From Patescibacteria group bacterium (lineage in GTDB: Bacteria; Patescibacteriota; Patescibacteriia; PEXW01), in contig JBAYJA010000001.1 of NCBI GenBank assembly GCA_041665345.1, positions 137,206 through 201,205 of the forward strand: a stretch of 64,000 nucleotides of DNA, read 5' to 3'. A program made the position numbers and the translations under genes. Under the pieces are notes generated by a model that had not been told where the DNA came from, searched no databases, and saw only the letters and a program-made list of their open reading frames with translations. Below, piece after piece: positions 4,841-20,807 of the stretch (within the stretch, counting starts at the first letter, position 1; the number at the start of each line of letters is the position of its first letter).

Positions 4841-5902
4841 GTGAGTATCACGATGAAAGACCATTTGCAGGGAAGCTTGCTGGGGGTTCGCATTGGCGAC
4901 GCACTGGGTATGCCGGTGGAAACCATGTCACCGGCAGAAATTTTAGCGGCTACGGATGGTAAAGGTGTAACGGGATTTTTAGATGCCATTCAGACAAAGT
5001 ATCCCGATCAAGCTATGCTCAAAAAGGGTGATCCAACCGATGACTGGCAGTTTAATCGGATTGTCGCTAAGTCGCTGATTGCTTGTAGGGGTTACAACCA
5101 AGCAGATATGGCGCGTCGGCACGTGGCTGAAAAAGACGTGAATATGATCGGCTGGGGGAAAACCACACGGTCGGCCACCATGGAATTGGCAACCTATTTT
5201 GCCAGCGGAGGCCAGTATGGTCGAGATCCGAACAATTTGCCCGAAGCTAAACCCGATTTTGGTGGCGGGAACGGCGTGGGTATGAAAGTATTTTCACTTC
5301 CCTCGGCAATCCTCGCCGCGGAATATGGTGCCCAGTACCGTTACCCAGAGTACACGTTGTTCCGTTGGGTCGAGCAGCTGACCATGTTAACGCATAGTCA
5401 TAGTGACGCATTTTTTACCGCGTACGCATTGGCGGTTGCGTTTGATGCTTGTGTTCGTGATGCAGTTTATACGTCATCGGATGCGCAACGGCTGCTCCAA
5501 AAAATCGATTTCGAACTTGCTAAAGTTGAAAATGCATCGCGCTATCGAGACGTAAGTGCAACACGCAAACAGATTGGCCGTCTGATGTATTGCATTGGTA
5601 ACCCCGGTAAAGTCACTGAAAATTTCCCTCCATATGGGTTAGCGATTCAGTCTGTACCCTTTGCTTTAGGCATTTTTCTCACCTATCCTGGGGATGCGCG
5701 GAAAGCATTGTTGACCTGTGTAAATGCTGGGTACGATTGCGACACCACGGCAGCCATGTGCGGCAGCCTCCTTGGCGCGAATGGGGGAGTGGAGGCATTC
5801 CCGGCAGAGTGGCGGAACTTCCGACCCGACTTCCAGGAACCGCTGGAGTTGGGCGAAAGATTGTACCAAGCTTTTGCTCGGACGTCCCAACAAACCTCGT
5901 AA
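4841..5902 (+). CDS. ADP-ribosylglycohydrolase family protein (DraG/ARH-like)
   Basis: G(VRI)GDALGMPVE near the N-terminus and CDTTAAMCGSLLGANGG near the C-terminus are the two hallmark Mg-binding motifs. GTG start is 5 nt after an AGGAG SD. Confidence 0.85.
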   Translation: MSITMKDHLQGSLLGVRIGDALGMPVETMSPAEILAATDGKGVTGFLDAIQTKYPDQAMLKKGDPTDDWQFNRIVAKSLIACRGYNQADMARRHVAEKDVNMIGWGKTTRSATMELATYFASGGQYGRDPNNLPEAKPDFGGGNGVGMKVFSLPSAILAAEYGAQYRYPEYTLFRWVEQLTMLTHSHSDAFFTAYALAVAFDACVRDAVYTSSDAQRLLQKIDFELAKVENASRYRDVSATRKQIGRLMYCIGNPGKVTENFPPYGLAIQSVPFALGIFLTYPGDARKALLTCVNAGYDCDTTAAMCGSLLGANGGVEAFPAEWRNFRPDFQEPLELGERLYQAFARTSQQTS

Positions 5903-6235: not shown

Positions 6236-6940
6236 ATGCAGCAATCAGTACTTGGGGGCTCAGTCTCTTTATCCGTGGTCGTCCATGGGAAAGAAGTTCG
6301 GGAGATTTTCCATGAGGAGAAAATGTTCATCGAGGCCCACCTCGGATCACGTTTTTCGCTTCGGATTAGCAATAATTCCCCGAAGCGCGTGCTCGCCGTT
6401 ATCACAGTCGATGGCCTGTCCGTCATGGATGGGAAAGTCGGCAAATTTGACTCAAGCGGTTATGTGTTGAGTCCGTGGAGTAGTCACGACATCCCAGGTT
6501 GGCGTCTGAGTGATGCTGCCGTCGCGAAGTTCTTCTTCGGCACACTCGACCAGGCGTATGCCACCCAGATGGATGCACCCACGAACATCGGCGTTATCGG
6601 ATGTGCAGTCTTCAACGAACCCGATAGAACGGCTTTCCGCCCACATGTCTTGTATAGCAAGGGACGGGATAGTGCACCTCAAACTTTCGGTGCCTTCAAT
6701 TCTTCCCTTGAAGGTCAGGGTACGGGCGTTGGTTTTGGTGAAGAAGCCACACACCATGTCGGCCGGACAACGTTCAATAAACTTCTGGAGCCGTCAGCCA
6801 TTTTCGCGATTTACTATGATACGCGGGAAAAACTGATTCAGAAGGGTGTGCCGGTGGACAAGCCGACTGTCGCCGTCGCTAACCCATTTCCGGGACAACC
6901 TGGATACTGTACTCCGCCGAAGAATTGGCCTCGCAGCTAG
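6236..6940 (+). CDS. hypothetical protein
   Basis: 234-aa ORF. SD ttaggag 8 nt upstream. No motif I recognise. Confidence 0.6.
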   Translation: MQQSVLGGSVSLSVVVHGKEVREIFHEEKMFIEAHLGSRFSLRISNNSPKRVLAVITVDGLSVMDGKVGKFDSSGYVLSPWSSHDIPGWRLSDAAVAKFFFGTLDQAYATQMDAPTNIGVIGCAVFNEPDRTAFRPHVLYSKGRDSAPQTFGAFNSSLEGQGTGVGFGEEATHHVGRTTFNKLLEPSAIFAIYYDTREKLIQKGVPVDKPTVAVANPFPGQPGYCTPPKNWPRS

Positions 6941-6975
6941 ACTGAACTTCCACGCTGCAAATTATGTACTTTCAA

Positions 6976-7001
6976 GGAGTCGCTTCGGCGACTCCTTTTT
7001 T
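6976..7001 (+). terminator. UUCG-tetraloop hairpin ggagtcgc-ttcg-gcgactcc plus tttttt (cassette copy 3)
   Basis: Perfect 8-bp stem. Confidence 0.75.
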
Positions 7002-7030
7002 GTATGGCATCAAATTCAAAATCCCTGATC

Positions 7031-7058
7031 TTGACATTTTCCGCAACGTTTGCTATTG
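7031..7058 (+). promoter_or_regulatory. promoter cTTGACAtttt-16-TATTGT
   Basis: Good -35 and -10 boxes. Precedes the 7102 gene. Confidence 0.55.
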
Positions 7059-7101
7059 TTATTCGTCAAATATAAAAATCAATACTTACAGGAGGTCTAT
7101 T

Positions 7102-7527
7102 GTGGCCGTACATTCATTAACAACAACCATACAGTTTGTCCAATGTGACTTTTGTGGAAGTGTGTACCACGACCACGAGAGCGCAAGAATCCATCATTGC
7201 ATGGCAGGTGACCCACCGCTCCCAGAAAATTTTCATGAAGGGGATACGGTTGTGGCCAGGCTGAAGCTTGGTTCCGGCTTGGAACATGTAGGGTTTGAAA
7301 GAGGAGAATGTAAGATTCTGCGCTTTCAAAAGCCCAATGCGGCCTATCCGTGGCAGCCGAAGTTCAATTTCGGTGGACTTGAAAGTCCGCCTACGGTACC
7401 TCATGAATGGCTCGTGGTTGTCCAACCAATTGGGAAACCAAAAAAAGAAGGGGCACACTTCCTGAGCCAAGAAGTCATTCGGGTGAGCTGCTTAGAGTTG
7501 AAGCCCGACGATAAAAGTCACAAGTGA
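7102..7527 (+). CDS. small protein with a C2H2/zinc-ribbon-like Cys/His cluster
   Basis: GTG 7102 follows an AGGAGG SD. CDFCGSVYHDHESARIHHC. The ORF-track start at 6964 was rejected because it spans the terminator and promoter. Confidence 0.6.
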   Translation: MAVHSLTTTIQFVQCDFCGSVYHDHESARIHHCMAGDPPLPENFHEGDTVVARLKLGSGLEHVGFERGECKILRFQKPNAAYPWQPKFNFGGLESPPTVPHEWLVVVQPIGKPKKEGAHFLSQEVIRVSCLELKPDDKSHK

Positions 7528-7542
7528 GTTTTGAACCTATCA

Positions 7543-7569
7543 AGGAGTCGTTTCGGCGACTCCTTTTTC
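7543..7569 (+). terminator. UUCG-tetraloop hairpin aggagtcg-tttcg-gcgactcct plus ttttt (cassette copy 4)
   Basis: Near-identical to the 6976 hairpin. Confidence 0.7.
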
Positions 7570-7706
7570 TTACCGAAGAATTCGGTGCGTTACTAGTACC
7601 GCTCCTCAAACCCACACCCTCCATCCATACTCGCTTCCAGCCCTGAGTTTATCGAAGGGCCGCCACGCCCAAACCTTTACCTCTCCAACCCTGTGGATAA
7701 CTTTGG

Positions 7707-7735
7707 GCTTGACGGCTTTTGTGAGCGGGTTTACT
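7707..7735 (+). promoter_or_regulatory. promoter gggcTTGACG-17-TACTAT upstream of the NrtR gene
   Basis: The ORF track proposes a TTG start at 7703 that falls inside this promoter-like box. I interpret the box as a promoter. Confidence 0.45.
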
Positions 7736-7759
7736 ATGTGTATATCTTACACTAAGTAT

Positions 7760-8434
7760 ATGGCCAAGGTTGCTCGGAAGTACAAATTTGCAGTCATTGC
7801 CTCGGATGTCGTCATGCTGACCGTCCGCGATGGAAAGCTGGAAGTGCTTTGCATTCAGATGCAGAAAGCGCCGTTTATTGGGAAATGGGCCGTGCCGGGC
7901 GGGTTAGTGCAGCCAACGGAATCTGTGGACGAAGCCGCACACCGGATTTTGGCGGAAAAAGCCGGAATCCATGGGGTATACCTGGAGCAGCTGTACACCT
8001 TTGGCAAAGTGCGCCGGGATCCTTTTGGCCGCGTGGTTTCTGTGGCGTACTTCGCGCTGGTGCCCAGTGACGCACTCCGTCTGAAGACCACCAAGGAGTA
8101 CAAGGATGTGCAGTGGTTTCCCGTGAAGAAACTGCCTGGCCTGGCTTACGATCACGCAGACATTGTAGCCACGGCTGTGCAGCGCCTGCAGGCCAAGCTG
8201 GGATACACCAACATTGTGTACAGTCTGCTGCCAAAAACCTTTACCCTTTCGGAACTGCAGGGTATGTACGAAACGATTTTGGGAAAAACACTGGACAAGC
8301 GAAATTTTCGGAAAAAAGTCATTGGTTTAAAGCTGGTGAAGCCGGCAGGGGAGCAGCGGAAAGGCCAGGCTAGCCGGCCAGCGGAGCTGTACCGTTTTGC
8401 CGCCACTGAACTGAAGAAAGTGGAGATTCTCTAG
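7760..8434 (+). CDS. nrtR: NrtR-family regulator (Nudix domain fused to a C-terminal winged helix)
   Basis: Nudix signature GKWAVPGGLVQPTESVDEAAHRILAEKAGI. The C-terminal TLSELQGMYETILGKTLDKRNFRKKV is typical of the NrtR DNA-binding domain. Start set at ATG 7760 (MAKVARKYKFAVIASD). Confidence 0.75.
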   Translation: MAKVARKYKFAVIASDVVMLTVRDGKLEVLCIQMQKAPFIGKWAVPGGLVQPTESVDEAAHRILAEKAGIHGVYLEQLYTFGKVRRDPFGRVVSVAYFALVPSDALRLKTTKEYKDVQWFPVKKLPGLAYDHADIVATAVQRLQAKLGYTNIVYSLLPKTFTLSELQGMYETILGKTLDKRNFRKKVIGLKLVKPAGEQRKGQASRPAELYRFAATELKKVEIL

Positions 8435-8706
8435 CAAAATTTTTTACCTTCATATAAGTGTAAATAATACACTAACTATATGAGCCTTCTCACCCAATTC
8501 TTTGATGTCAACGTTATTTTACAGACTTCGGGTCAATCATGAGGAGATCTTCCCTGAAGGTGCTTTCTTCGTAGGCCGCACTAAGGAGCGGAGGAAGCAG
8601 TTTGAAGGAAGTTCTGCTCAAAACCAGCAGATTAGCTTCCAAAATTGTAAAGCACTTTGACAATTCGAAACCACCATAGAGTATCAAGAATATGTTTTTT
8701 GTGGGC

Positions 8707-8735
8707 TTGACAAATTGTTGAAAGCCTGGTAGAGT
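8707..8735 (+). promoter_or_regulatory. promoter gggcTTGACAaa-17-TAGAGT for the four-gene operon
   Basis: Consensus -35, 17-nt spacer, TAnnnT -10. About 100 nt upstream of the first gene. Confidence 0.55.
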
Positions 8736-8838
8736 GCTTTTTCTTAGAACTGAAGTACTGGAAGAGCTGGGGGCACTTTGAAAACCTAGAAATGAAACAA
8801 TTATTAATGAGATGAATGTTTTTTTGGGAAAGGAGAGA

Positions 8839-9669
8839 ATGATGATTGTGGAAGGCTTGTCAGGTCGCTACACACTAGGCACGCAAGTAGCAGAAACTGA
8901 GAAGTACCGGCTCTACCTTTGTAGAGAAGAAAGCACAGGCCAAGAGTGCTTGCTGCAGATAGCCACAGACAATCAGCATGATGGCACACTATGCCGTTCT
9001 GCTGTTCGGCTAGAAGTACTCAAACGTGCAGCCGATGCACTTGAAGCCGAGTATGAAAAGGTTCGTGAGAACCCTGAGATGCGGCTGAATTACGCCATTG
9101 GTTTCCCTGAGTTGATTGACAGTTTTCCTTGCATTCCGCAAGGTTCACGTCAGATCAATATCCTTGCATTTAGAAATGTTGAGGATGTGAGACACATGGT
9201 GCCGCTGTGTAATATTACTGTTCGGGATCACCTCCGGGTTGATTTTCGAACCAGTGCATGGATCATGGGGAAATTATTAAAGCTCCTGGTCTTTGCGCAC
9301 AGTCAGGGCATTGCGGTTGGACGGCTGGATAGCGCGAACATTTTGATTGAGCCAAAGCAGCACTACGTGTTGTTCTTTGACTGGTCAGAAGCATTTGTCT
9401 ATCCCGAAACTGTTCCGACGGAAATTGCCCGCCAGGAAATTGCCCAGGCCGCCAACGCGGTGATTACTGTTGTTGGAGGAAATCTGGAAACAAGAACTTT
9501 CCCGGACGACGGCGATACTGCGCAAGATCGCTACACGGATTTTTTGCTGCAGCTGGCTGACGGACGTCAGCGGGATGCACAGCAGGCGCACACGGAATTC
9601 TACAAGCTCGTTGATGAGCTCTGGAAACGTGAGTATTACGAATTCACCACGCTACCCGTACACACGTAA
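8839..9669 (+). CDS. protein-kinase-like fold protein (divergent, possibly a pseudokinase)
   Basis: AHSQGIAVGRLDSANILIEPKQHYVLFFDWSEAF aligns with the kinase catalytic-loop/DFG region (HxxGIxHRDLKPxNILI...DFG). The N-terminal GRYTLGTQVAETEKYRLYL resembles a Gly-rich loop. The canonical VAIK Lys and HRD Asp are not conserved. Start at ATG 8839 follows an AAAGGAGAG SD. Confidence 0.55.
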   Translation: MMIVEGLSGRYTLGTQVAETEKYRLYLCREESTGQECLLQIATDNQHDGTLCRSAVRLEVLKRAADALEAEYEKVRENPEMRLNYAIGFPELIDSFPCIPQGSRQINILAFRNVEDVRHMVPLCNITVRDHLRVDFRTSAWIMGKLLKLLVFAHSQGIAVGRLDSANILIEPKQHYVLFFDWSEAFVYPETVPTEIARQEIAQAANAVITVVGGNLETRTFPDDGDTAQDRYTDFLLQLADGRQRDAQQAHTEFYKLVDELWKREYYEFTTLPVHT

Positions 9670-9690
9670 ACACAGGAAGGAGTTTGATTC

Positions 9691-10809
9691 ATGGGAAAAG
9701 AAACTTTCTCACGAACCACGTACAGCAAATCGTACGCGAAATTCGCGTCAAAAGATGGTCCGGCAACGTCAAAGGCTGAGCAAACAGCCCACAAAACTGG
9801 TAAGCTGAATCCGCTTGTTGATCCGCAGGGATTTGGCGTGATTCGGCGTTCACTGCTTCGTCTGGAGCAGCTCCCAAATAAACTTTGGGAAGTGACCGTC
9901 GGAAGTCCACTCCCTATCGAAACCCGAGTCGACACGACCGGCAGCATGGGGCATAACGTTGATATTGCTTTACGGGTTCTTCCGAATGCATTTGAGCAGA
10001 TCAGCGAGGTAACCCCGGGCTACGATCAGCAGGTTGCCACCGGTATTTTTGGTGACGTGCAGGACCGGTTTGTCCTGTGCCGTCCGCAGTTTGAAATGGT
10101 TGCGGAGAAAATCGTTGAGCAGCTAACCTTAATGGTTCCTGAGCGAGCCGGTGGTGATGCTGACGAAGATCCGCACTACGGCCTATTTGGAGCCGCTTAC
10201 CTGGTTGCCGCGTACATTAATCGGATCGGTCTGAAAAGGTACGATTTCACTGCTTCTGATGCGTCAGCGCGTGATCGACTTGATGAAAGTCAACTTATCC
10301 GAATATTCGGACCCGACGTTTTCGCCAAGGTCGCCGAAAATGGGCATCAAATGCGCGCCGATGATCTCCCCACAACAGCTGATGTTGTGCAAGATCTCCT
10401 CAAACGCGCACATGCCTTTTTCCTGCAGGTTGGCGACAATTCGGAGACCACCAGATTCTGGACAAGAATCTACGGTCGCGAACGCGTGGTCATTCTGCCA
10501 AGCACCGAGCTAATGCCTCAGGTGCAGGCAACGATCATTGGACTGACCGAAGGAACACTCGATCTGAAAGATGTGCCGGCATTCCTGAAGAAGCACAATG
10601 TGCAATTGGGGGATGCTGAGAAAATCGCCCGTTCGGTTGCCAATATTCCAATTGGCGCACAAGCCGCGTTGCCGAATTTTTCCAAGCGTCCCAAGAAGGG
10701 TGACCTCTTCCGTGAGAAGACCGACCTTTGGCCGGTTGATCCACAGGAGCTTGGAAAAGCTAAGCCCCATAAGGCAAAGCCAGGCGACAAAAAGACTGAA
10801 TGGCTGTAA
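9691..10809 (+). CDS. von Willebrand factor A (vWA) domain protein
   Basis: RVDTTGSMG MIDAS (DxSxS-like) motif after a beta strand. A later GGD segment is present. AGGAAGGAG SD 7 nt upstream. Confidence 0.6.
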   Translation: MGKETFSRTTYSKSYAKFASKDGPATSKAEQTAHKTGKLNPLVDPQGFGVIRRSLLRLEQLPNKLWEVTVGSPLPIETRVDTTGSMGHNVDIALRVLPNAFEQISEVTPGYDQQVATGIFGDVQDRFVLCRPQFEMVAEKIVEQLTLMVPERAGGDADEDPHYGLFGAAYLVAAYINRIGLKRYDFTASDASARDRLDESQLIRIFGPDVFAKVAENGHQMRADDLPTTADVVQDLLKRAHAFFLQVGDNSETTRFWTRIYGRERVVILPSTELMPQVQATIIGLTEGTLDLKDVPAFLKKHNVQLGDAEKIARSVANIPIGAQAALPNFSKRPKKGDLFREKTDLWPVDPQELGKAKPHKAKPGDKKTEWL

Positions 10810-10836
10810 ACCCCCTCTCACGACAAACCGAATGAG

Positions 10837-12228
10837 GTGATGATGACGAACAAAGTCTACGTTGTCACCGATCTCGGTCCAGGAGACGGTGGCAAAGGTG
10901 GTGTGGTGCACAAAATCTCCACGATGCAGTGCGCGCATACCATTATTAAAGTCGGCGGTGCGCAGGGAAGCCACGGTGTCTGCACCTCGCAGGGTGAAAG
11001 CTTTGCTTTCAGCCAGTGGGGTTGCGGGACGCTGGAAGGGGTGAAAACACACATCTCCTCAGAGATGGTTGTCATGCCCGAAGGTTTACTGAATGAAGCT
11101 GATACCCTGCGCTACAACTGTGGAGTGCACAATGCCTTTGATCTCCTCACGGTTGATGAAAGTGCGCTGTGCGCCACACCCTACCATGGTATTGCCTCAC
11201 GCCTGAAAGAGATGGCGTTGGGCGACCACCCGCGTGGAACCATTGGTACCGGCGTTGGCGAAGCGTTCCGCATAGCGGAACGCATGCCAGAGCTCGCACT
11301 ATACGTTCGTGATCTTTCACGAGCGCATTTGCGACAAAAATTAGCTGACTGCAGAGAGCAAATCCGTTCCGATCTTGCAGGAGTGATGCGCGGGGAATTT
11401 TCCGGTGCTGACCAGGAAGCTGCGCAGCAGGAAATGCATCTTCTGTATGATGATGATTTCCTGACGTATGTCTTCCAACGCTTCCAAACAGTTGGGAAAC
11501 GGGCAACAATTGTTGATCCTGGCTATCTTGGGAGGGAGATTCTCTCGCAAGACGGAGTAGCAATCGTGGAGAAATCCCACGGGGTGCTCACTGATCGCTA
11601 TCATGGTTTTCATCCCCATACCAGCGCTATTCGGACATTGCCATGCTTTGCCGAAGCAATGTTGAGGCGCGCTGGCTATGGCGGAAGTATTATCCACCTT
11701 GGTGTTACTCGGGCATACCAGATTCGCCATGGAGCCGGACCCATGCCAACTGCTGATCCAGCAATGGCAGAACACTTGCTTCCGGGTAGTCACAAGGAGG
11801 AGAATCGTTACCAAGGCAAGATTCGCGTTGGTCCGCTGGATCTTGTCCTGCTTCGCTACGCCCTAGCAGCCTGTGGAGGTCCAACCGCTTTCGATGGCCT
11901 TGCCGTCACGTGGTTTGATCAAATACAGGCAAATGGTGCTTGGCACCTGTGCGATGGGTACGAGGGCAGTATTGGGCAAGACTTTTTCACACCCCTGGGT
12001 GATATAAAAGTCCGGCACGGCAATGATGCGAACCAGCTTGCGTACCAAGAAGCTTTGGGGCAGCACCTCTTGTGCTGCACGCCCAAGCTGCAAACTGTCC
12101 ACTTTTCACCAACCGAAACGCGAGACAATTTGTTCGCGCTTTGTGCTGGTGTGTTACAAGAAAAATTAGGCATTACAACCAGAATGATCTCGTTTGGGCC
12201 AACTGAACGAGACAAAACGTGCAAGTGA
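10837..12228 (+). CDS. adenylosuccinate-synthetase (PurA) family paralogue, divergent
   Basis: P-loop VVTDLGPGDGGKGGVV (PurA GDEGKGK). GGAQGSHGV (PurA GGHNAGHT). HPRGTIGTGVGEAF (PurA TTGRGIGPAY). TRAYQIRHGAGPMPT (PurA GSGPFPTE). Overlaps the next gene, so translational coupling is likely. Confidence 0.8.
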   Translation: MMMTNKVYVVTDLGPGDGGKGGVVHKISTMQCAHTIIKVGGAQGSHGVCTSQGESFAFSQWGCGTLEGVKTHISSEMVVMPEGLLNEADTLRYNCGVHNAFDLLTVDESALCATPYHGIASRLKEMALGDHPRGTIGTGVGEAFRIAERMPELALYVRDLSRAHLRQKLADCREQIRSDLAGVMRGEFSGADQEAAQQEMHLLYDDDFLTYVFQRFQTVGKRATIVDPGYLGREILSQDGVAIVEKSHGVLTDRYHGFHPHTSAIRTLPCFAEAMLRRAGYGGSIIHLGVTRAYQIRHGAGPMPTADPAMAEHLLPGSHKEENRYQGKIRVGPLDLVLLRYALAACGGPTAFDGLAVTWFDQIQANGAWHLCDGYEGSIGQDFFTPLGDIKVRHGNDANQLAYQEALGQHLLCCTPKLQTVHFSPTETRDNLFALCAGVLQEKLGITTRMISFGPTERDKTCK

Positions 12229-12248
12229 AACTTGCAGGAGGACAAACA

Positions 12249-13247
12249 ATGTCAGGAGAAACCCTTGATCCGGTAACTGCTAAACTTCGCGAACTTGGCG
12301 TTGACGATGCAACGATCGGAAAAATTAAAGATGATCTCGGCGCGACGAGTGTTGAAGATCTTGCCGGTCTGACCGAAGCCGATCTCATCGGTACGGGCAT
12401 GAAGGTTTTGCAGGCAAGAAAATTACTTGCCGCGCTTGCCCCTACCGCCTCGCCTACTGCTGATCCTACCGCTGAATTAGCCGAAGGTGAGCAGCCTTCC
12501 AAAGCGCAGGTGAGTGGCTTTGCTGGCATGCTTGGCGCTGATCCTACCGCTCTGCTCCTGCTCATGAGCGGTAAGGGTGGTGATATGGATCTTACATCCA
12601 TGATATCTATTGCTAGCCTGGTCAACGGGTATAATCCCAAACGCCGAGACTTGTACTTGACGGTTATGGGTCAGGTTGAAGGTCGGCTTGGATTACCCAT
12701 TGTTGTTATCGACGGCGATGGCAGCATCAACCGCGAACTTACCATCGAGTACATTGAAGGACTCGAGGAAGGACGTGATTCTGCCGAAAACAACATCTAT
12801 TTCGATTCAACCGGCTCGCCGCATGAAGTCATTCGCGTTGGTGTTGATGCACAGAGCATCTACGACGCTGATCCGTTGAATCCAAGTCGGGCACTGCAGA
12901 AGAGTGGTATGGGTATTGGTCGCGTGAATTGGACCAACGTACCGCTGGAAGTTCGTCAGGTCGCATACTATGCGGTCACCAAAACGGGTGAAATCGACCC
13001 GAATAATGATGCGCATCAGTCGTGGCTCCGTGACAAAATGAAACCAGGCTCAACTCGTCTGGTCTTTCATGGGCAGGCTCCACGTGCAATCAGCGAATTC
13101 AACGAAGCGGCTCGTACTGGTTCGTTACCAACACTTCGGGTCATGCTTTCGCGTGGTCCGCGCCGTCCGGAGTTTATGCCGCGTCGCCGTCGATCATCGC
13201 CAGCCGACCTTACCGGCATTGGCGGACGTCGAGACGATGACATCTAG
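12249..13247 (+). CDS. hypothetical protein with N-terminal tandem HeH/SAP-like helix-hairpin motifs and an Arg-rich C-terminus
   Basis: LRELGVDDATIGKIKDDLGATSVEDLAGLTEADLIG resembles Rho-N/SAP/LEM HeH repeats. An Ala/Pro linker and an unknown C-terminal domain follow. ATG 12249 sits 6 nt after a GCAGGAGGA SD. The in-frame GTG 12219 overlaps the PurA-like stop. Confidence 0.5.
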   Translation: MSGETLDPVTAKLRELGVDDATIGKIKDDLGATSVEDLAGLTEADLIGTGMKVLQARKLLAALAPTASPTADPTAELAEGEQPSKAQVSGFAGMLGADPTALLLLMSGKGGDMDLTSMISIASLVNGYNPKRRDLYLTVMGQVEGRLGLPIVVIDGDGSINRELTIEYIEGLEEGRDSAENNIYFDSTGSPHEVIRVGVDAQSIYDADPLNPSRALQKSGMGIGRVNWTNVPLEVRQVAYYAVTKTGEIDPNNDAHQSWLRDKMKPGSTRLVFHGQAPRAISEFNEAARTGSLPTLRVMLSRGPRRPEFMPRRRRSSPADLTGIGGRRDDDI

Positions 13248-13280
13248 TCGTTAATCGTTCCTTTTTCCACTTTGGTGGGG

Positions 13281-13309
13281 TGGCCAGAAAGCATTACGCT
13301 TTCTGGCCA
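13281..13309. terminator. bidirectional terminator hairpin tggccagaaagc-attac-gctttctggcca
   Basis: Perfect 12-bp stem flanked by T/A runs, between convergent genes. Confidence 0.8.
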
Positions 13310-13315
13310 TTTATT

Positions 13316-15286
13316 TTACTTGATTTTTGGCAAGAATACCCGGTTCGCGTAGAGTTGGGTTGCTAGCTGGCGGTAGCCCGAATCCCAGAAGGTGCTCTGC
13401 CCGTCAATGCGATCAGCGTGTGGTGTTTGGATGCCGCCGTGTGCAGGAAAGAATCGTTCATAGCCCTTGTGCATCAAGCGGTACTGGAGGGTGTCGCGTT
13501 CCAGTTCTTCAATGTACAGTCCCCGCGCTTCTCGCCCATGCAGAGTTTTCTGCGTGTCATACATATACGGTGTTAGCAGTTTTTCGCGCAGTTCGCGAAT
13601 CTCGCTGGCGTTTCCTTCCCAGGCCGCGCCAAAGAGAATATGTGTCCAAGAGCTTTCGCCCAGGGATACTTCAGGACTGTTAAAGTCCTGTACACCTAGA
13701 CCCCCTTTCGTTTCCTCAAGCCAGAATGCAACAACATCACCCTGCAGGTGATTTTGGGTAAAAGTTTCTTTCAGCTGCTTCTGCAGTTTTTCGTGCTCAC
13801 TTGGGGCTACCCCTGGCCGCACGAAGACGCCGGTATCCACATCCGCACCGTTAGCGCCGTAACCCTTCAGCCGTGAACCGAAAAGCAATACCACCGGGTA
13901 GAGTTTTTGCGACAGTTCTGGGTTTGCTTCAATGGCCGCCACAATGTTCTGGGTGTCCTGCACCTCTGCTTTCAGCTCTGAGAGGTTCTTAGAAAACGGT
14001 CCGGCGAGCGCAGGGACGGAAATATCCAGCGCTTCAAGCTCCGACGTTGTAATAAGTTGTAGGCCATGGAGACGGAAGAAAGTTTTTTCTAGCTCCTCAT
14101 GTACTGCTGGCGCAGCTGTGTGCCAGAGAGCGGTGAGCGTATCCTGGTAGCGCTCAAAGAGCACCTGCGCTGCTTGGGGGTTGGTTCGTGTGATTGCTTC
14201 AATAGCCTTGCGGATGCCGTTGATGGCTGCTTGCTGGCTTTCTACGCTGGCCTTCGGGTCAAAATACTCCTCAAGGGTGTGCTGATTGAGTGCTCCATTG
14301 GCGATTGCAGTTTGTAGGGCATCCCCAAGCGTTTCCAGAATTTTGCGTTTTTTTTCGCGTGTTAGCCACGCTTCCCGTTTCTTGGTCATACCCGTGTACG
14401 TCTCAGCGTCAATTTGCTTAAATGCATTTTGGATTGTTTCTTGCAATGCGGAAGGGGATAGGGTTGATGCTGTTGTAGTTTCTTGCTTCTCTGAATGTTC
14501 AGAGGGTATAGAAATTTCTAGCGTCACGTTTCTGACAAAAGCATTGGAAGATGCATGCATTGCTTTCAGCTCTGCCTCATGAAGAAGGCCCAGATCTGCC
14601 AAAACCGGTAGCGTGTCTGCAATGCTCTGTTGCAGCGTTTCATCGTCACTAGATTCCAGAAGCTCCACCACCTCCTGGGTTGTCATGAGATTCCGCTCAA
14701 CGAGTTTGGGAATCAGGTGTGCAGCTTTCACAACCCGTGGTAGATCTCCCGCTCGTGATTCCACATCCAGTACGTCGCCGTCAACAAAGTTTGCCCGGAC
14801 ATCGTGCACCGACAAAAGTTTCTCCCACGCCCTACTGTACGCCTGGCGGAATTCCTCCGTAGCCTGTTGCAGCGCTGGAGAGTCTGGTTCCCAGGTCTTT
14901 GGCGGTAAAAATTCAAAGGGGAGGTAGAGTGCTATCCGTTGGTAATCCTCATCTTCAAGCAGGTATTGCAGTGAAGTGTAGAGTTCCGCCACTTCTGCCT
15001 CAGGAATGTTGCCGTTGGCCACTGCTTCTTCCAATGGAAGATCTGGCCGAGGCAGACGAGAGATGACTTCTTGCAACCTTTGATTCAGTTGCCGGCGCGA
15101 TTCAACCTGATTCTGGAATGCCTCATTTTTGGTGACATGGTCAGGCCAGACCTCTGCCGCATGAGCAAGATCCAGGAAGGATTCCACTGCCGGAGGGGCA
15201 ATAGGGTATCCTTCAGCTCGTTCATGTTCTCGTTTGTAGCCTTCATGGTTCATGTACGTAGCATAAAGTGAATACTCAAAACACAC
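13316..15286 (-). CDS. large protein with a C-terminal Pol-beta-type (minimal) nucleotidyltransferase domain
   Basis: LLFGSRLKGYGANGADVDTGVFV matches the GS-x9-13-DxD NTase motif at about residues 455-480 of 656. The 450-aa N-terminal region is helical and acidic, with no motif I recognise. Confidence 0.6.
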   Translation of the reverse strand: MCFEYSLYATYMNHEGYKREHERAEGYPIAPPAVESFLDLAHAAEVWPDHVTKNEAFQNQVESRRQLNQRLQEVISRLPRPDLPLEEAVANGNIPEAEVAELYTSLQYLLEDEDYQRIALYLPFEFLPPKTWEPDSPALQQATEEFRQAYSRAWEKLLSVHDVRANFVDGDVLDVESRAGDLPRVVKAAHLIPKLVERNLMTTQEVVELLESSDDETLQQSIADTLPVLADLGLLHEAELKAMHASSNAFVRNVTLEISIPSEHSEKQETTTASTLSPSALQETIQNAFKQIDAETYTGMTKKREAWLTREKKRKILETLGDALQTAIANGALNQHTLEEYFDPKASVESQQAAINGIRKAIEAITRTNPQAAQVLFERYQDTLTALWHTAAPAVHEELEKTFFRLHGLQLITTSELEALDISVPALAGPFSKNLSELKAEVQDTQNIVAAIEANPELSQKLYPVVLLFGSRLKGYGANGADVDTGVFVRPGVAPSEHEKLQKQLKETFTQNHLQGDVVAFWLEETKGGLGVQDFNSPEVSLGESSWTHILFGAAWEGNASEIRELREKLLTPYMYDTQKTLHGREARGLYIEELERDTLQYRLMHKGYERFFPAHGGIQTPHADRIDGQSTFWDSGYRQLATQLYANRVFLPKIK

Positions 15287-15407
15287 AACATATTTTATTA
15301 GCCTAGCACTTGCCTACGTAACACCCGTCTTCATCCCTTGAAAAAATGTTTATTTCACCTCTTGACAAGAGTAACAAAAAATGAGAAGGTTGCGGGTCTA
15401 AAAACCA

Positions 15408-15448
15408 GAGATTTGGGAGTGCAAAAGTGCATTTTCACTCCCAAATCT
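15408..15448. promoter_or_regulatory. 41-bp inverted repeat (agatttgggagtg-N14-cactcccaaatct) in the divergent promoter region between the NTase gene and pncA; candidate operator
   Basis: Perfect 13-bp arms. It lies between divergent starts, so it is not a terminator. Confidence 0.45.
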
Positions 15449-15532
15449 TTCCCCTCAATTTCTATTGGATTGAAGGGCAAAAAATGAATAAAAATAACCG
15501 AAATTGTTCACCATTTACAAGAAGGAGGTAGC

Positions 15533-16081
15533 ATGGGAAACCGTGCGCACATCACCATCGATGTGCAGAATGACTTTTGCCCTGAGGGAAGACTTGCGGT
15601 TACTGCGGGTGATGAAGTTGTACCCGTCATTAACCAGCGGGTGAAGAATCCTGCTTATAAACGCAAGTACAATTCCCGTGATTGGCATCCGCCCGGTTCG
15701 GAGCATTTTAAGAAATGGCCGACGCACTGTGTGGAAAAAACTTTGGGTGCAGCCTTTCATCCGGATTTGGATCTCACAGACGCAGTGATTATTACCAAAG
15801 GTCAAGACCCGGCGCTCGATGGTTACAGCGCCTTTGAGGGTACGACGTCCTGGGGAGCAATGCTGGAAGATGATCTTCGCGCACATGGAATCACCGACAT
15901 TGACATCGAAGGTTTGGCTACTGAATATTGCGTGAAGAAATCTGCTATTGATGGAGCCAAACGTGGTTTCAACGTTACGGTGTACCTCGATGGCTGCCGG
16001 GCAGTGAATATCAAGCCGGGCGACGAAGAAGCAGCGATTGTCGAAATGCGTGCCGCCGGCGTCAACGTTGTGGCCGCCTAA
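15533..16081 (+). CDS. pncA: nicotinamidase/pyrazinamidase (isochorismatase family)
   Basis: ITIDVQNDFC...RDWHPPGSEHF...TEYCVKKSAIDG fits the Asp/Lys/Cys triad pattern. AGGAGG SD. Confidence 0.75.
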   Translation: MGNRAHITIDVQNDFCPEGRLAVTAGDEVVPVINQRVKNPAYKRKYNSRDWHPPGSEHFKKWPTHCVEKTLGAAFHPDLDLTDAVIITKGQDPALDGYSAFEGTTSWGAMLEDDLRAHGITDIDIEGLATEYCVKKSAIDGAKRGFNVTVYLDGCRAVNIKPGDEEAAIVEMRAAGVNVVAA

Positions 16082-16161
16082 GCATAAACCGCTCATTCGC
16101 ACTTGGAGGTACGCGTTCAACTCGCGTACCTCCACCCAAAAAATTTCTTTTAGAGCTTTGT

Positions 16162-16232
16162 GACAGTCACCTGACTGTCCCATTCCTCTGGTCATAACAT
16201 AAGGTTGTGGCCTTGCACTTTCAGAAATACAC
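16162..16232 (+). promoter_or_regulatory. regulatory module copy 1: 8-2-8 palindrome gacagtca-cc-tgactgtc, 6 nt, then a 47-nt conserved element ctctggtcataacataaggttgtggccttgcac...
   Basis: Recurs at 16638-16708 with the same spacing, directly upstream of the next gene. The element can form a 9-bp RNA hairpin ggucauaac/guuguggcc using G-U pairs. Confidence 0.55.
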
Positions 16233-16255
16233 ATTCAATCAGAACGAGGTGAAAC

Positions 16256-16570
16256 ATGGTAAACGTACAAGCCTTTGAGTTGCGGAAGTTGATTCCCGAA
16301 CTTGAGGCACAACTCAAGCAAGCGAGACAAGCGCTTGAAGCGATTGAAGCACGGTGCTCGCATAGCTGGGGCCCAGTACAGTACGACCCCATCGAGCATG
16401 CTGCATATCACATTCCCGGCGACCCGCCGGAGTTTAGCGGCGCAGATCATCGATTTCCAATGGACGTGCCCGCCCGAACCGAGAAACGTTGGCGACGGGA
16501 TTGCATCCATTGCGGAAAACCAGAATACACAAACCATACAAAACCTGCTGGGGAAGAGCCAGTGTTCTAA
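16256..16570 (+). CDS. hypothetical small protein (Cys/His-rich)
   Basis: 104 aa. CSHSW...CIHCGKPEY. SD gaggtg upstream. Confidence 0.5.
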   Translation: MVNVQAFELRKLIPELEAQLKQARQALEAIEARCSHSWGPVQYDPIEHAAYHIPGDPPEFSGADHRFPMDVPARTEKRWRRDCIHCGKPEYTNHTKPAGEEPVF

Positions 16571-16637
16571 TGGATGTTGTGGGTGAAGTATGTGCTTGTT
16601 TGTGCATACTTCACCCCTTTCTCATGAAGAGACGAGA

Positions 16638-16708
16638 GATGATTATGTGATCATCTTCTATCTCTGGTCATAACATTAGGTTGTGGCCTTGCACCTTAAG
16701 AAAATGAA
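16638..16708 (+). promoter_or_regulatory. regulatory module copy 2: palindrome gatgatta-tg-tgatcatc, 6 nt, then the conserved element ctctggtcataacattaggttgtggccttgcacc...
   Basis: About 90% identical to copy 1 over 47 nt. A partial third copy (tgcaccttgaaaacatg) lies at 18256-18285 upstream of the Nudix/pncB genes. Confidence 0.55.
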
Positions 16709-16731
16709 TTTCATCCGAAAGTGAGGATACA

Positions 16732-18132
16732 GTGAAAGTCATCATGTATGGCTTAAGCGCTAATCCGCCTGGGATACACCATCGTTTATTGGTGCAGGAA
16801 ATGGCGAAGTATGCAGACCTGGTCATTGTGGTGCCGTGCGGTTTACGGCCGGACAAGTTGACCACGAATGATATCCCGCCGTTGTACCGTGCAGCAATGA
16901 CCGACATGACCTTTCAGGACATTCCAAATGTATGCGTGGATCTGTCTGACTTAGAACGATCAGTATTCACGCGAAGTTGGGAGTTGTTGCAAAGGTATGA
17001 GCGAGAATATCCTGGAGCGGAACTTTGCTTGGCAGTTGGTGGCGATCTTATTGCCAACGGTCGCTATGGTGAGTCAGCCATTCACCGCAAGTGGGAGCAG
17101 GGGAAAACACTGTGGGAAAATGCAAACTTCATTGTTTGCAATCGCCTGCACACTCCCTTTGATCCTGTGGATCTACCCCCACACTGCCAGTTTGTGCATG
17201 TAGACCTTGTCGGTTCCAGCACAGACATTCGGGATCGCGTGTTCGGACACAAACCAATTACCGGTTTGGTGATGCCGAGCGTGGAGACCTACATTCATCG
17301 GTACAATCTGTACCGGGGCATGATGGCGGCCACAACCGCGAAGCATGCCAGCTTAGATAATCCTCGCCTGCTCATACTGGCAGATGCTGAGACGCCACGA
17401 GCAATGGCAATCGCTTCGCAGTTCGCGCGGTTTGAGGATGCTGAAAATCCAAACGGCATTTTGGTCTGTGGCGGTGATGGCATGATGCTGCAAGCAATTC
17501 GGCAGGAGTGGCGCCGACGTTTGCCCTTCATCGGCATGAATGCTGGCCATTGGGGGTTCCTCATGAATAGCTTCGAAGAAATCACCGCAATGGATCACGC
17601 CTTTGATGACCTCTCTTTTGTCCAGTCGCCCATGCTGTACGTGGAGTCAGTGCGGCCAGATGGAACCACGGCAAATGCCTTGGCGTTCAACGACTGCTGG
17701 ACGCATTCGCAGAACAATGGGCAAGCAGCGAAATCTGAGGTTCGCGTGAACGGCAGAGTCTGCCTCAAGTCCGTGGTGTCAGATGGCATGCTGGTGAGTA
17801 CGGCCGCGGGATCAACCTCGTATGCGCGGGCAATGGGCGCTATGCCACTTCCGGTGGGCTCGAGTCAGCTTATCCTCGTGGGCAGCAATGTGTTTTCCCC
17901 CTTTGGGTGGCGGCCAGCGTACCTGCCAATTACCGATCGGATTTGCATCCGAACTTTGGAACCGGAGAAGCGTCCGGTAGATGCATTTGTTGATGGTATT
18001 TCCTTTGGGCAAACCATGCAGCTCGATGCCCGAACCAGCAATATTGCTTCCGTGGAAATTGGATTCTTCGGCGCACACGATTTGCAGGAGAAGATCCGCG
18101 CAATTCAGTTCGTTGAGCAGTATCTTCAATAG
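16732..18132 (+). CDS. bifunctional fusion: nicotinate/nicotinamide-mononucleotide adenylyltransferase (NadD-like) N-terminal, NAD kinase (NadK) C-terminal
   Basis: The N-terminus MYGLSANPPGIHHRLL matches the (H/T)xGH nucleotidyltransferase motif of NadD. The C-terminus has GGDGMML (NAD kinase GGDGT motif), NDxW and TAAGSTSYARAMGA (NadK GSTAYS motif). It is a single 466-aa ORF. Confidence 0.8.
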   Translation: MKVIMYGLSANPPGIHHRLLVQEMAKYADLVIVVPCGLRPDKLTTNDIPPLYRAAMTDMTFQDIPNVCVDLSDLERSVFTRSWELLQRYEREYPGAELCLAVGGDLIANGRYGESAIHRKWEQGKTLWENANFIVCNRLHTPFDPVDLPPHCQFVHVDLVGSSTDIRDRVFGHKPITGLVMPSVETYIHRYNLYRGMMAATTAKHASLDNPRLLILADAETPRAMAIASQFARFEDAENPNGILVCGGDGMMLQAIRQEWRRRLPFIGMNAGHWGFLMNSFEEITAMDHAFDDLSFVQSPMLYVESVRPDGTTANALAFNDCWTHSQNNGQAAKSEVRVNGRVCLKSVVSDGMLVSTAAGSTSYARAMGAMPLPVGSSQLILVGSNVFSPFGWRPAYLPITDRICIRTLEPEKRPVDAFVDGISFGQTMQLDARTSNIASVEIGFFGAHDLQEKIRAIQFVEQYLQ

Positions 18133-18302: not shown

Positions 18303-18917
18303 ATGGTACAGCCAAAAGTGCGACCGCAAGGCAGTTTCGCCTTGGAGACTGTTGATATCAATGGTCGAAATTGGTCGGTGCTACACGCTTCAGACTCAGC
18401 CGGTTTATTGGTCTTTCTGAAAGATCGTAATGCCATTGTGCTGGTCCGGCAGCAGCGTGCGCCCATGGTTTCTGCACACAATCCGGAAGGTTCGATTACG
18501 GAACTTCTCGCTGGTCGGTTCGACAAAGACGAGACGCCAATCCAGTTGCTGGTTCGCGAGGCTTCAGAGGAAGCTGGAATCGCCATTGATGCCAGTCAGA
18601 TCAAAGTACTCAACTTTGGTCACCCGCTTGCCCTCTCAGCCGGCATTATTGATGAACTATGCTGGATTGGTTACGTGGAAATTTCCGATGACCAAATTGA
18701 CCCCAGCGGTAAGCTTTACGGACTGCACGAGGAAGGAGAGTTCATTGACCGGATCATGATTCCGGTTGAGCAACTTGAATCCCTGGTTTGTGAAGATGCT
18801 CGTGTCTTCGGCATGATCCAGTGGTTCCTGCGTTGGCAAATGGAACACCGTCTGCAAGCATTAACAGACCAGCTGGAGAAATTCGAACGCGAGATGAACG
18901 AAACGAAAACGATTTGA
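18303..18917 (+). CDS. Nudix hydrolase, likely ADP-ribose pyrophosphatase
   Basis: Nudix box GRFDKDETPIQLLVREASEEAGI. Sits between nadD-nadK and pncB. Confidence 0.7.
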   Translation: MVQPKVRPQGSFALETVDINGRNWSVLHASDSAGLLVFLKDRNAIVLVRQQRAPMVSAHNPEGSITELLAGRFDKDETPIQLLVREASEEAGIAIDASQIKVLNFGHPLALSAGIIDELCWIGYVEISDDQIDPSGKLYGLHEEGEFIDRIMIPVEQLESLVCEDARVFGMIQWFLRWQMEHRLQALTDQLEKFEREMNETKTI

Positions 18918-20327: not shown

Positions 20328-20807
20328 ATGCGCGTCGTATACTGGCTTGAAACCTTTCCACCACCGAGTGACAAATCAATTTTTTTAGCCGGACCTACGC
20401 CACGGCATGAAGGAGTGCAAACCTGGCGTCCAAAGGCGCTGGAAACGTTGGAGCGGCTTGGGTATGACGGCGTGGTCTTTGTACCTGAGTATCGTAACGG
20501 CCAGTTGCCAAAGGTGGATATGGCAGCGTATACGGATCGGATTGACTGGGAAACCAGTGCCCTTGCGCGGGCTCAAGTTATTGCCTTCTGGGTACCACGT
20601 GTACTGGAGACCATGCCAGCCTTCACGACCAATATCGAATTTGGTGAATGGTTCAAGTCCGGCAAAATTGTTCTGGGTACGCCGCCAGAAGCGCGGAAGG
20701 TAAGTTACATGCGTTACCGCGCTGGTCAACATCTGGTGCCGCTGGCAGAAACGTTGGAAGACACGCTGAAACTGGCTTTGCGGAAGCTGGGCGATCTTGC
20801 AAAGTAA
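20328..20807 (+). CDS. nucleoside 2-deoxyribosyltransferase-like (Rossmann) protein
   Basis: IFLAGPTPR ... VIAFWVPR ... TNIEFGEW resembles the NDT/YtoQ family pattern. AGGAGG SD. Confidence 0.5.
   Translation: MRVVYWLETFPPPSDKSIFLAGPTPRHEGVQTWRPKALETLERLGYDGVVFVPEYRNGQLPKVDMAAYTDRIDWETSALARAQVIAFWVPRVLETMPAFTTNIEFGEWFKSGKIVLGTPPEARKVSYMRYRAGQHLVPLAETLEDTLKLALRKLGDLAK

Follow-up and report, generated by a model that had tools for sequence, protein, structure and literature searches.

We analyzed a 64,000-nt stretch of DNA from the metagenome-assembled genome of a Patescibacteria (CPR) group bacterium (contig JBAYJA010000001.1, positions 137,206 to 201,205; hereafter the window) and characterized a gene cluster in which a plus-strand operon, g1-g2-g3-g4, faces a convergent minus-strand neighbour, g5. 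This locus is one copy of a conserved, undescribed kind of system that is built from known folds: a pseudokinase (g1), a vWA protein (g2), a divergent member of the PurA family (g3), a SAM-domain protein with an exchangeable C-terminal domain (g4) and a putative nucleotidyltransferase (g5). The first three genes, g1-g2-g3 (hereafter the trio), also occur on phages and plasmids, and the operon is preceded by a predicted operator of NrtR, a repressor family of nicotinamide adenine dinucleotide (NAD) metabolism. We propose, with a probability of about 40%, that the module is a GTP-driven ligase system that would answer NAD+ breakdown and act on NAD+-derived nucleotides. The elements of the locus are listed below by their positions in the window.

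nrtR, 7703–8434, plus strand: NrtR-family repressor with a Nudix-like sensor domain and an NrtR winged helix (PF21906, 1.4e-24; PF00293, 8e-18; NCBIfam NF050029, 7.5e-51)

NrtR box 1, 7735–7755: TATGTGTATATCTTACACTAA, with a GT-N7-AC core and 21-bp symmetry

NrtR box 2, 8455–8475: TAAGTGTAAATAATACACTAA, 5' of the g1-g4 operon, in the intergenic region after nrtR

sigma-70-like promoter candidate, 8707–8735, plus strand: TTGACA-17-TAGAGT with an upstream TG, 10 of 12 positions, a consensus match only

g1, 8839–9669, plus strand: protein-kinase fold without conserved catalytic residues (pseudokinase)

g2, 9691–10809, plus strand: vWA fold; its D-x-T-x-S motif is MIDAS-like, and its C-terminal tail is conserved and ends in W-L

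g3, 10843–12228, plus strand: divergent PurA-family enzyme with the adenylosuccinate-synthetase fold (PF00709, 5e-32)

g4, 12249–13247, plus strand: SAM-like N-terminal domain, 'type A' C-terminal domain and an Arg-rich disordered tail ending in G-I-G-G

candidate bidirectional terminator, 13278–13312: 15-bp GC-rich hairpin between the convergent g4 and g5

g5, 13316–15253, minus strand: conserved N-terminal domain, helical repeats, Polβ/MNT-type nucleotidyltransferase domain and a conserved C-terminal helical region

We scanned one genome per species and obtained 121 loci, 80 of which were analyzed; open reading frames (ORFs) were clustered for the 79 non-redundant loci. Judging by the record titles, most of the loci belong to Patescibacteria (Saccharibacteria, Paceibacterota, Uhr-, Falkow-, Davies-, Ryan- and Wildermuthbacteria, and others), while the few labelled as Gammaproteobacteria, Fibrobacteres or Omnitrophota probably reflect binning or annotation errors. 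The g3 gene is present in 78 of the 79 loci, g5 in 72, g2 and g1 in 70 each, and the common form of g4 in 59. The gene order is constant, g1-g2-g3-g4 followed by the convergent g5, and since it recurs in 70–78 of 79 independent Patescibacteria loci, the arrangement is not a product of chance. Identity of the g3 proteins across these loci is 45–70%. The commonest extra neighbour of the cluster is NrtR (12/79 loci), followed by nadE, pncB, an ADP-ribosylglycohydrolase (ARH) and nadD; ARH is a neighbour in 5/79 loci, and ARH genes adjoin the cluster in L035, L049, L050 and L085. A second, divergent g2-g3 pair stands beside a normal g1-g2-g3 in locus L011 (5229–11389), which is a local partial duplication.

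These distributions revise a preliminary description of the locus, which was made from the sequence alone. It had delineated a four-gene unit, whereas the unit comprises five genes, as g5 accompanies the operon in 72/79 loci and is in some cases fused to g3. It had called for a neighbourhood search for kinase-like and vWA genes next to the PurA paralogue, and such genes are found in 70/79 loci each; the alternative it allowed for, namely neighbours that co-occur with g3 in this genome only, is at odds with their presence in more than 70 loci as well as on phages and plasmids. It had also considered a conflict system inserted into an NAD island; instead, the cluster is conserved across Patescibacteria classes and is often located away from NAD genes.

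The four plus-strand ORFs of that description (8839–9669, 9691–10809, 10837–12228 and 12249–13247) all exist, and most of their starts could be anchored. An AAGGAG ribosome-binding site and the homologue alignment both back the g1 start at 8839, and the g4 start at 12249 agrees with the protein P0121. The supported g3 start is 10843, the third Met of the ORF that opens at GTG 10837, and it coincides with the start of the public protein P0001. The g3 product has the same sequence as a public entry, 'MAG: adenylosuccinate synthetase [Patescibacteria group bacterium]', on a 1.08-Mb contig. The g5 ORF opens at GTG 15286, ATG 15253 being the better fit to homologues, and nrtR probably starts at ATG 7760, near which the homologue alignment begins ('MAKVA'). 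With the supported starts, the gaps between g1 and g4 measure 20–33 nt; the genes are thus tightly packed with zero overlap, and the overlap suggested for them is not borne out. The promoter-like match at 8707–8735 and the 15-bp hairpin at 13278–13312, described as the two ends of the operon, are both present, with promoter-like matches across the whole region being no more frequent than in shuffled sequence.

The regulation of the module was approached through its operator. Published NrtR sites are 21-bp palindromes with a GT-N7-AC core, and ADP-ribose detaches characterized NrtR proteins from DNA (PMC2330246, Rodionov et al. 2008). A 21-bp palindrome of this type, TTAGTGT-N7-ACACTAA, lies upstream of g1 also in genomes with nrtR located elsewhere. 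The exact form AGTGT-N7-ACACT is found at 25 sites in 1.42 Mb of loci, 12 of them within the 2.5% of sequence that lies upstream of g1 (p 3e-13); allowing at most one mismatch gives 81 sites, of which 26, from 21 of 75 loci, are upstream of g1 (binomial p 9e-22). In related loci this box is also found in front of nrtR, nadE, nadD, nadB-nadA and ARH. The window itself contains only two boxes, one at nrtR and one at g1. Box 1 abuts a promoter-like site in front of nrtR (7709–7737) and is therefore the likely autoregulation site of nrtR. By its conserved operator, the operon belongs to the NrtR regulon, the binding of NrtR being predicted; this operator, together with NrtR-like genes and operators that are attached to the trio in Actinobacteria (described below), upholds the NrtR/ADP-ribose control suggested at the outset.

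The interval between box 2 and the g1 start codon, about 360 nt (8476–8838), is unusually long and holds two more palindromes, at 8612–8632 (TTCTGCTCAAAACCAGCAGAT) and 8643–8665 (AATTGTAAAGCACTTTGACAATT). An Rfam scan of 7400–16800 returned zero family matches, so the long leader upstream of g1 carries no known riboswitch. This stretch may represent a leader RNA or add a second layer of regulation.

The g3 protein matches the PurA family (PF00709, E 5e-32) and falls far under both purA equivalog cut-offs (NF002223, 81 bits vs 402; TIGR00184, 69 bits vs 396), and PurA structures in PDB score about 60 bits against the g3 profile. Alignment with E. coli PurA demonstrates that g3, with a P-loop that reads GDGGKGG, keeps the P-loop Lys16, the catalytic Asp13 and His41, the guanine-specifying Asp333 and the S414-x-G-P motif. 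Substrate contacts, in contrast, are changed: Asn38 is replaced by Gln, Thr129 by Ile or Cys, Gln224 by His and Lys331 by Trp or His, and Arg143 is lost. Both IMP 5'-phosphate ligands, Thr129 and Arg143 (the latter from the partner subunit), are therefore among the replaced residues. The aspartate loop of PurA, TTGRxRR (Thr300, Thr301, Arg303 and Arg305), has become [WY]QG-K[FI]R in the g3 clade with a one-residue deletion, reading Y-Q-G-K-I-R in the window. These derived active-site states are common to the phage and Patescibacteria g3 proteins, and the description of g3 as a non-canonical PurA paralogue with an altered P-loop and altered IMP-site residues thus stands.

PurA uses GTP to phosphorylate O6 of IMP, after which the amine of aspartate displaces the phosphate. 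From this mechanism and from the residues that are kept and changed in g3 we infer that GTP-dependent activation is retained and that IMP and aspartate have given way to another acceptor and another amine partner; g3 is most likely a GTP-dependent ligase. The clade is large, as 1,737 clusters at 50% identity in public data match the g3 profile at E <= 1e-30, and its proteins are 430–465 aa long. A longer protein from a JGI metagenome (P0406, 700 aa) combines a PurA-like domain (residues 13–472) with a C-terminal domain of ∼230 residues that gave zero matches to the g1, g2, g4 and g5 profiles.

The g1 family profile matches structures of casein kinase 2 (CK2; E 1e-7), and among PHROG families g1 matches PHROG 3043, 'kinase' (6e-10); the phage homologue of g1 reaches Pfam Pkinase at 8.7e-9. 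Among 29 aligned homologues the only invariant residues are W141, G144, K148, H175 and Y255. The position of the beta3 Lys is mostly occupied by Gln, with Lys in some sequences; the HRD Asp is absent (V/A-G-R in Patescibacteria, H-G-A in the phage homologue), and the DFG position varies (FDW, FNW or YNF). On these grounds g1 is a pseudokinase by the usual sequence criteria, which agrees with the kinase fold lacking a canonical Lys and Asp that had been noted for it. The g2 protein was assigned a Rossmann-like vWA fold from a structure model; its profile gave zero useful matches against PDB sequences, and among PHROG profiles it matched a family of unknown function (1e-5). The residues of the metal ion-dependent adhesion site (MIDAS), D81, T83, S85 and D190, are invariant in 31 sequences, a metal site is predicted, and the phage homologue keeps the motif as D-V-T-G-S. 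The model and the invariant motif thus sustain the vWA/MIDAS assignment, and the C-terminal tail of g2, ending in W-L, is conserved as well.

The g4 protein had been described as a HeH/SAP protein, but its N-terminal head is a five-helix SAM fold, with a weak Pfam SAM match, that also resembles (HhH)2 nucleic-acid-binding domains. The C-terminal domain is exchangeable. The 'type A' domain of the window has 155 homologues and no match in PDB or Pfam, while in most loci the same SAM head is followed by an unrelated helical domain, 'type B'; the type-B profile gave zero useful matches against PDB sequences. Some loci swap the SAM head for another domain, and a few loci are without g4, yet every form of g4 ends in G-I-G-[GRK].

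The g5 protein contains the motif GSRLKGYG...D-x-D, with G470, S471, D482 and D484 invariant. Among 34 homologues of g5, 26 match Polbeta (PF18765, best E 1e-6) and 22 match NTP_transf_2; among solved sequences the nearest is the minimal nucleotidyltransferase HI0073 (E 1e-4), MNT antitoxins are also among the closest solved relatives, and there is weak similarity to PAP/GLD-2. By these sequence matches g5 is a Polβ-superfamily nucleotidyltransferase of MNT-like type. Two metagenomic proteins of 1129 and 1102 residues (P0388 and P0419) are end-to-end fusions of g3 with a full-length g5 (g5 profile E 6.5e-136 and 3.9e-128), and one of the two sits in a g1-g2-[g3::g5] operon (locus L120). Such fusions are strong evidence that g3 and g5 work together. 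L120 is without g4, and no nrtR gene is located inside the 15.8 kb around its fusion gene; a perfect 21-bp palindrome with a GT-N7-AC core, GAGATGTATACATTACATCTC, is found at ∼774–794 of this locus, about 270 bp upstream of g1.

Homologues of the trio were further identified in phages. In a tblastn search, the gene annotated 'PurA-like adenylosuccinate synthetase' in 202 Mycobacterium phages (Bxz1, Catera, Caravan and others) was 33% identical to g3 over 99% of its length. The best PHROG match of g3 is PHROG 1211 (1e-40), which is annotated as a PurZ-type synthetase and pools PurA-like phage proteins. The record examined in full was Caravan, a Bixzunavirus, where the order is gp251 ('serine/threonine kinase'), gp252 (hypothetical), gp253 (88 aa) and gp254 (PurA-like). 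The g1 profile aligns with gp251 and the g2 profile with gp252, both at an hhalign probability of 98.8% (E 9e-17 and 1e-16, respectively), and gp254 reaches 214 bits with the Patescibacteria g3 profile, vs ∼60 bits for canonical PurA. Profiles were needed here, since tblastn with g2 found nothing in phages, though homologues exist. In the records examined, the only annotations on phage genes of the trio are 'serine/threonine kinase' for the kinase-fold gene, 'hypothetical protein', and, for the PurA-like gene, 'PurA-like adenylosuccinate synthetase' or '2-aminooxy adenylosuccinate synthetase'. No homologues of g4 or g5 were found in the whole Caravan genome.

The scan of IMG/VR yielded 23 loci, of which about 15 have all three genes adjacent, including two Bixzunavirus copies and one Patescibacteria-like contig; two further loci contain the three genes in a different order. 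Bixzunavirus aside, the trio is thus present in about 12 uncultivated viral contigs. Several of the trio-bearing contigs are 120–350 kb long, and no recurrent extra neighbour, for RNA repair or otherwise, was found in the viral loci.

Individual phage loci contain further genes. Near the Caravan trio, across the ends of the linear record, are an RlaP-family nucleotidyltransferase (L088 473–1339, PF10127 1.8e-53) and a PNKP-type HAD phosphatase (L087 3299–3820), and an RNA ligase and a Ro-like protein are encoded elsewhere in this genome; RlaP was rejected as a phage counterpart of g5 (hhalign probability 0.2%). On a 124-kb viral contig with a GC fraction of 0.50 (L099 1341–9320), a g4 type-B-like gene (E 1e-39), a 383-aa gene and an apparently active Ser/Thr kinase (Pkinase 6e-26) precede the trio, and a calcineurin-like phosphoesterase and a second vWA protein follow it. 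On a 298-kb viral contig (L106 4266–9350), an intein-containing RtcB RNA ligase is located directly upstream of g2-g3, where no g1 homologue was detected.

Megaplasmids of Rhodococcus, Tsukamurella and Variovorax also carry the trio, in versions without g4. The R. opacus and Tsukamurella plasmids encode, after the trio, a protein of 210–215 residues (8-nt gap or 4-nt overlap) that aligns full-length with NrtR, covering a degenerate Nudix box and the winged helix. Their palindromes, GTTTTAGTCACTTAGACTAAAAC and TTTCTAGTCGTATAGACTAGAAA, are perfect, have the same GT-N7-AC register and directly adjoin the start codon of g1. An NrtR-type sensor is thus linked to the trio independently in a second phylum, as the actinobacterial plasmid operons have both an NrtR-like gene and an operator. 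In Variovorax, an Mrr-type nuclease is encoded ∼1.4 kb downstream of the trio.

The statement that the locus fits no named pathway or defence system was corroborated by PADLOC, NCBIfam and the literature. None of g1–g5 had a match in PADLOC-DB v2 at E <= 0.01, where the sole match was a weak one of the NrtR Nudix domain to PDC-S07; g1, g2 and the C-terminal domain of g4 are without a Pfam match, and NCBIfam was uninformative for the operon. No published description of the trio or of the five-gene cluster was found in the literature on PurA-like proteins, vWA proteins, pseudokinases, Patescibacteria and Bxz1. The closest known systems are compared below.

With PurA and PurZ, g3 shares the PF00709 fold, the P-loop Lys, Asp13, His41, Asp333 and S-x-G-P. 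It differs from PurA in the aspartate loop and in T129, R143, N38 and K331, and in that a pseudokinase and a vWA protein always accompany it. PurZ, a short PurA-like enzyme of phages that replace A by 2-aminoadenine, usually has DatZ and MazZ as companions. The constant neighbours of g3 are g1, g2, g4 and g5 in 79 loci and the remaining two genes of the trio in viral loci. Among regulatory systems, the module resembles the NrtR regulon in its Nudix-like and winged-helix regulator, its 21-bp GT-N7-AC operator and a box common to nadE, nadD, nadB, ARH and nrtR. The described NrtR targets are nadABC, pncAB, nadDE, nadV, prs, pnuC, niaP, draG and the unexplained nrtX-nrtY (PMC2330246); the trio is not among them, and in Actinobacteria it has a regulator of its own.

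Three sets of NAD+-restoring genes are carried by phages: NARP1 (Prs-like Adps and NamPT-like Namat), NARP2 (NamPT and NMNAT/Nudix) and NARP3 (PnuC-like and NadR-like proteins). The trio is likewise phage-borne, is conceptually tied to products of NAD+ cleavage and plausibly carries out an energy-dependent ligation, but g1–g5 belong to none of these enzyme families, and the NARP papers that were searched do not mention PurA-like, vWA or pseudokinase genes. NARP3 in particular, being a PnuC-like and NadR-like pair, was ruled out as the identity of the module. The TerY-P anti-phage system, which consists of a TerY-type vWA protein, a Ser/Thr kinase and PP2C, similarly places a vWA gene beside a kinase-fold gene in a mobile module; our module differs from it in having no PP2C, a kinase-fold protein without catalytic residues, no PADLOC match to TerY-P and a PurA-like constant third partner. 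Finally, ARG-centred systems, the core of which comprises ARG and rhodanese-type phosphatases, are predicted to counter ADP-ribosylation (Iyer et al. 2022, PMC9503650). They share with the module a Nudix-type NrtR-like regulator, occasional vWA 'chaperones' and nearby ARH genes; however, ARG is only an occasional neighbour of the module, and a PurA-like or pseudokinase component is not described there.

The proposed function can be outlined as follows. NrtR would release the operon on binding ADP-ribose, a product of NAD+ cleavage; because characterized NrtR proteins release DNA on ADP-ribose, the module is probably switched on when NAD+ is consumed or attacked. The catalytic heart would be g3: by analogy with PurA, GTP would phosphorylate an oxygen on a nucleotide-like acceptor, and an amine-type nucleophile would then displace the phosphate. 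The acceptor and the nucleophile would be other than IMP and aspartate, probably pieces derived from NAD+, and the most specific version, which is speculative, would have GTP drive the rejoining of an ADP-ribose or ribose-phosphate moiety to nicotinamide. In Patescibacteria g5 would add a nucleotidyl-transfer step, and g1 and g2 would form a non-catalytic scaffold that binds a ligand or a partner. The phage trio would thereby counter NAD+-depleting immunity, and the Patescibacteria and plasmid module would buffer the NAD+/adenylate pool. It is rather unlikely, if conceivable, that the trio (with g5 in Patescibacteria) represents a fourth kind of NAD+ restoration or ADP-ribose recycling, with a mechanism unlike that of the three known pathways, in which an NrtR-induced, GTP-using PurA-fold enzyme would activate ADP-ribose or a ribose phosphate and re-attach nicotinamide or another nitrogen nucleophile; large phages, actinobacterial megaplasmids and the reduced Patescibacteria genomes would then have this pathway in common.

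Several points weigh against a GTP-driven ligase system of NAD+ breakdown. The acceptor and the nucleophile are guesses from chemistry, and we know of no precedent for a PurA-fold enzyme that acts on the anomeric oxygen of ribose or on nicotinamide. Pseudokinase and vWA folds are more typical of signalling and conflict systems; along with a swappable SAM protein, they are not obviously needed for a metabolic task and would fit a signalling or conflict system equally well, and the domain swapping in g4 resembles effector exchange in conflict systems. About two thirds of the Patescibacteria loci, including all those of rumen Saccharibacteria, are without the box, and in the window box 2 sits 232 bp upstream of the predicted promoter. 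The only NAD-related annotation in Caravan, 'PnuC-like nicotinamide riboside transporter', belongs to a short gene at a great distance from the trio. In addition, not every NrtR-family member senses ADP-ribose; AraR, for instance, responds to another ligand (PMC4666351).

A possible alternative, to which we give less credence, is an ADP-ribose-triggered immune or counter-immune system, in which NrtR would de-repress the operon during attack, g1 and g2 would sense or capture a target protein, g3 and g5 would make or modify a nucleotide signal or a macromolecule, and g4 would oligomerise and deliver a variable effector. It would account for the exchange of the g4 C-terminal domain between lineages behind a constant SAM head and G-I-G-G tail, with a third kind of head in some loci, and for the presence of the trio on phages and megaplasmids, the Mrr-type nuclease in Variovorax, and the apparently active Ser/Thr kinase and g4B-like gene in the phage locus L099; associations of NrtR-like and vWA proteins have also been predicted for anti-ADP-ribosylation systems (PMC9503650). 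However, none of the five proteins matches a PADLOC family, a recognisable toxin or nuclease domain is not a constant member of the module, and phages keep the trio alone, without an effector-like partner. Moreover, the trio is unusually well conserved by the standards of conflict systems, with 60–70% identity between Patescibacteria classes and identity tiers that track taxonomy, and the Patescibacteria operator is common to the module and to biosynthetic NAD genes. Distinctly unlikely in our view is a protein-modifying ligase, in which MIDAS and the pseudokinase would hold a protein (possibly g4 with its tail), g3 with GTP would activate a carbonyl or carboxylate and couple an amine to give a nucleotide-protein or protein-protein adduct, and g5 would add to or prime the substrate with a nucleotide. 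Such a role would suit vWA domains as Mg2+-dependent peptide binders (PMC9503650), the MIDAS residues that are invariant in Patescibacteria and kept as D-x-T-x-S in the phage, a g1 with no catalytic residues but a few invariant residues of surface type, the conserved disordered tails of g4 and g2 (G-I-G-G and W-L), and the ability of MNT-type nucleotidyltransferases to AMPylate proteins, given that HI0073 and MNT antitoxins are relatives of g5. On the other hand, the phage, plasmid and L120 versions do without g4, which thus cannot be a universal substrate, and nothing here links such a modification to ADP-ribose. Nor is action on proteins known for any member of the PurA family.

The remaining two explanations concern g3 as part of nucleic-acid or purine metabolism. 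End repair or modification of RNA or other nucleic acids by g3 and g5, within the RNA-repair gene sets of phages, appears very unlikely. RtcB is encoded directly upstream of g2-g3 in L106, in Bixzunavirus a PNKP-type phosphatase lies three genes upstream of the trio with RlaP, RNA ligase and a Ro-like protein elsewhere in the genome, the g4 head resembles (HhH)2 nucleic-acid-binding domains, and g5 is of Polβ type with weak PAP/GLD-2 similarity; yet no recurrence of RNA-repair genes beside the trio is seen in the remaining viral loci or the Patescibacteria loci, no relationship between RlaP and g5 could be detected, and the NrtR link would be left unexplained. The least likely reading is ordinary purine salvage, according to which g3 would be a divergent adenylosuccinate synthetase that makes AMP for ATP and NAD next to unrelated neighbours. 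Pfam and the public annotation do name adenylosuccinate synthetase, D13, H41 and the GTP-site residues are retained, and co-regulation with NAD genes is conceivable, AMP being half of NAD. But the score of g3 is 81 bits against a purA equivalog cut-off of 402, the aspartate ligands (T300, T301, R303 and R305) and the IMP 5'-phosphate ligands (T129 and R143) are replaced, and purB is missing from the cluster. More than 70 loci, as well as phages and plasmids, have these neighbours together with g3, to which g5 can even be fused; the clade is an extra copy on Rhodococcus plasmids and in mycobacteriophages, the hosts of which are purine-prototrophic and make their own purines. AMP synthesis comes last for four reasons: its substrate ligands are replaced in g3, the cluster has no purB, the companions are constant, and phages and plasmids of such hosts carry extra copies.

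The module is no local oddity. Ultra-small bacterial symbionts, large lytic phages and megaplasmids of soil actinobacteria all carry its trio, which in two phyla is linked to repressors from the family of ADP-ribose sensors. Depletion and restoration of NAD+ are a central theme of the conflict between phages and bacteria, with three phage restoration pathways known. If the NAD+-restoration model were true, the module would be a variation on this already known functional theme; a GTP-dependent PurA-fold enzyme with new substrates would bring new chemistry to the NAD+ conflict field and give a role to 'hypothetical' genes that are conserved in Patescibacteria and in Bxz1-like mycobacteriophages, a well-studied group. 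Should the NAD+ idea prove wrong, the module is still a directly testable system with genetic handles, namely the phages of M. smegmatis and the Rhodococcus plasmids with their dedicated regulator and operator.

In the window, the cluster is flanked by genes of NAD and ADP-ribose metabolism, and the identities initially given to them (ARH, NrtR, pncA, nadD-nadK, Nudix, pncB and nadE) were each confirmed by a profile or a motif.

ARH, 4841–5902: ADP-ribosylglycohydrolase (Pfam)

pncA, 15533–16081, plus strand: nicotinamidase motifs, divergent from g5

nadD-nadK, 16732–18132, plus strand: one ORF with NadD (residues 1–200) fused to NAD kinase (residues 223–461)

Nudix, 18303–18917: Nudix gene

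pncB, 18927–20195: pncB gene

nadE, 20927–22588: glutamine-dependent nadE

Several less expected ORFs are interspersed with these genes. Between ARH and nrtR, two plus-strand ORFs at 6236–6940 and 6964–7527 (234 and 187 aa) are without a Pfam or NCBIfam match and may be part of the same ADP-ribose-related neighbourhood. Between pncB and nadE, the plus-strand ORF at 20328–20807 encodes a nucleoside 2-deoxyribosyltransferase-like protein (PF15891, 2.7e-12). Members of this fold act on N-glycosidic bonds of nucleosides and nucleotides, and the product could be part of the NAD/ADP-ribose island. Finally, the plus-strand ORF at 22948–23811 encodes two cytochrome b5-like haem-binding domains (PF00173, 8.9e-38, two stretches), which are unexpected in a reduced Patescibacteria genome.

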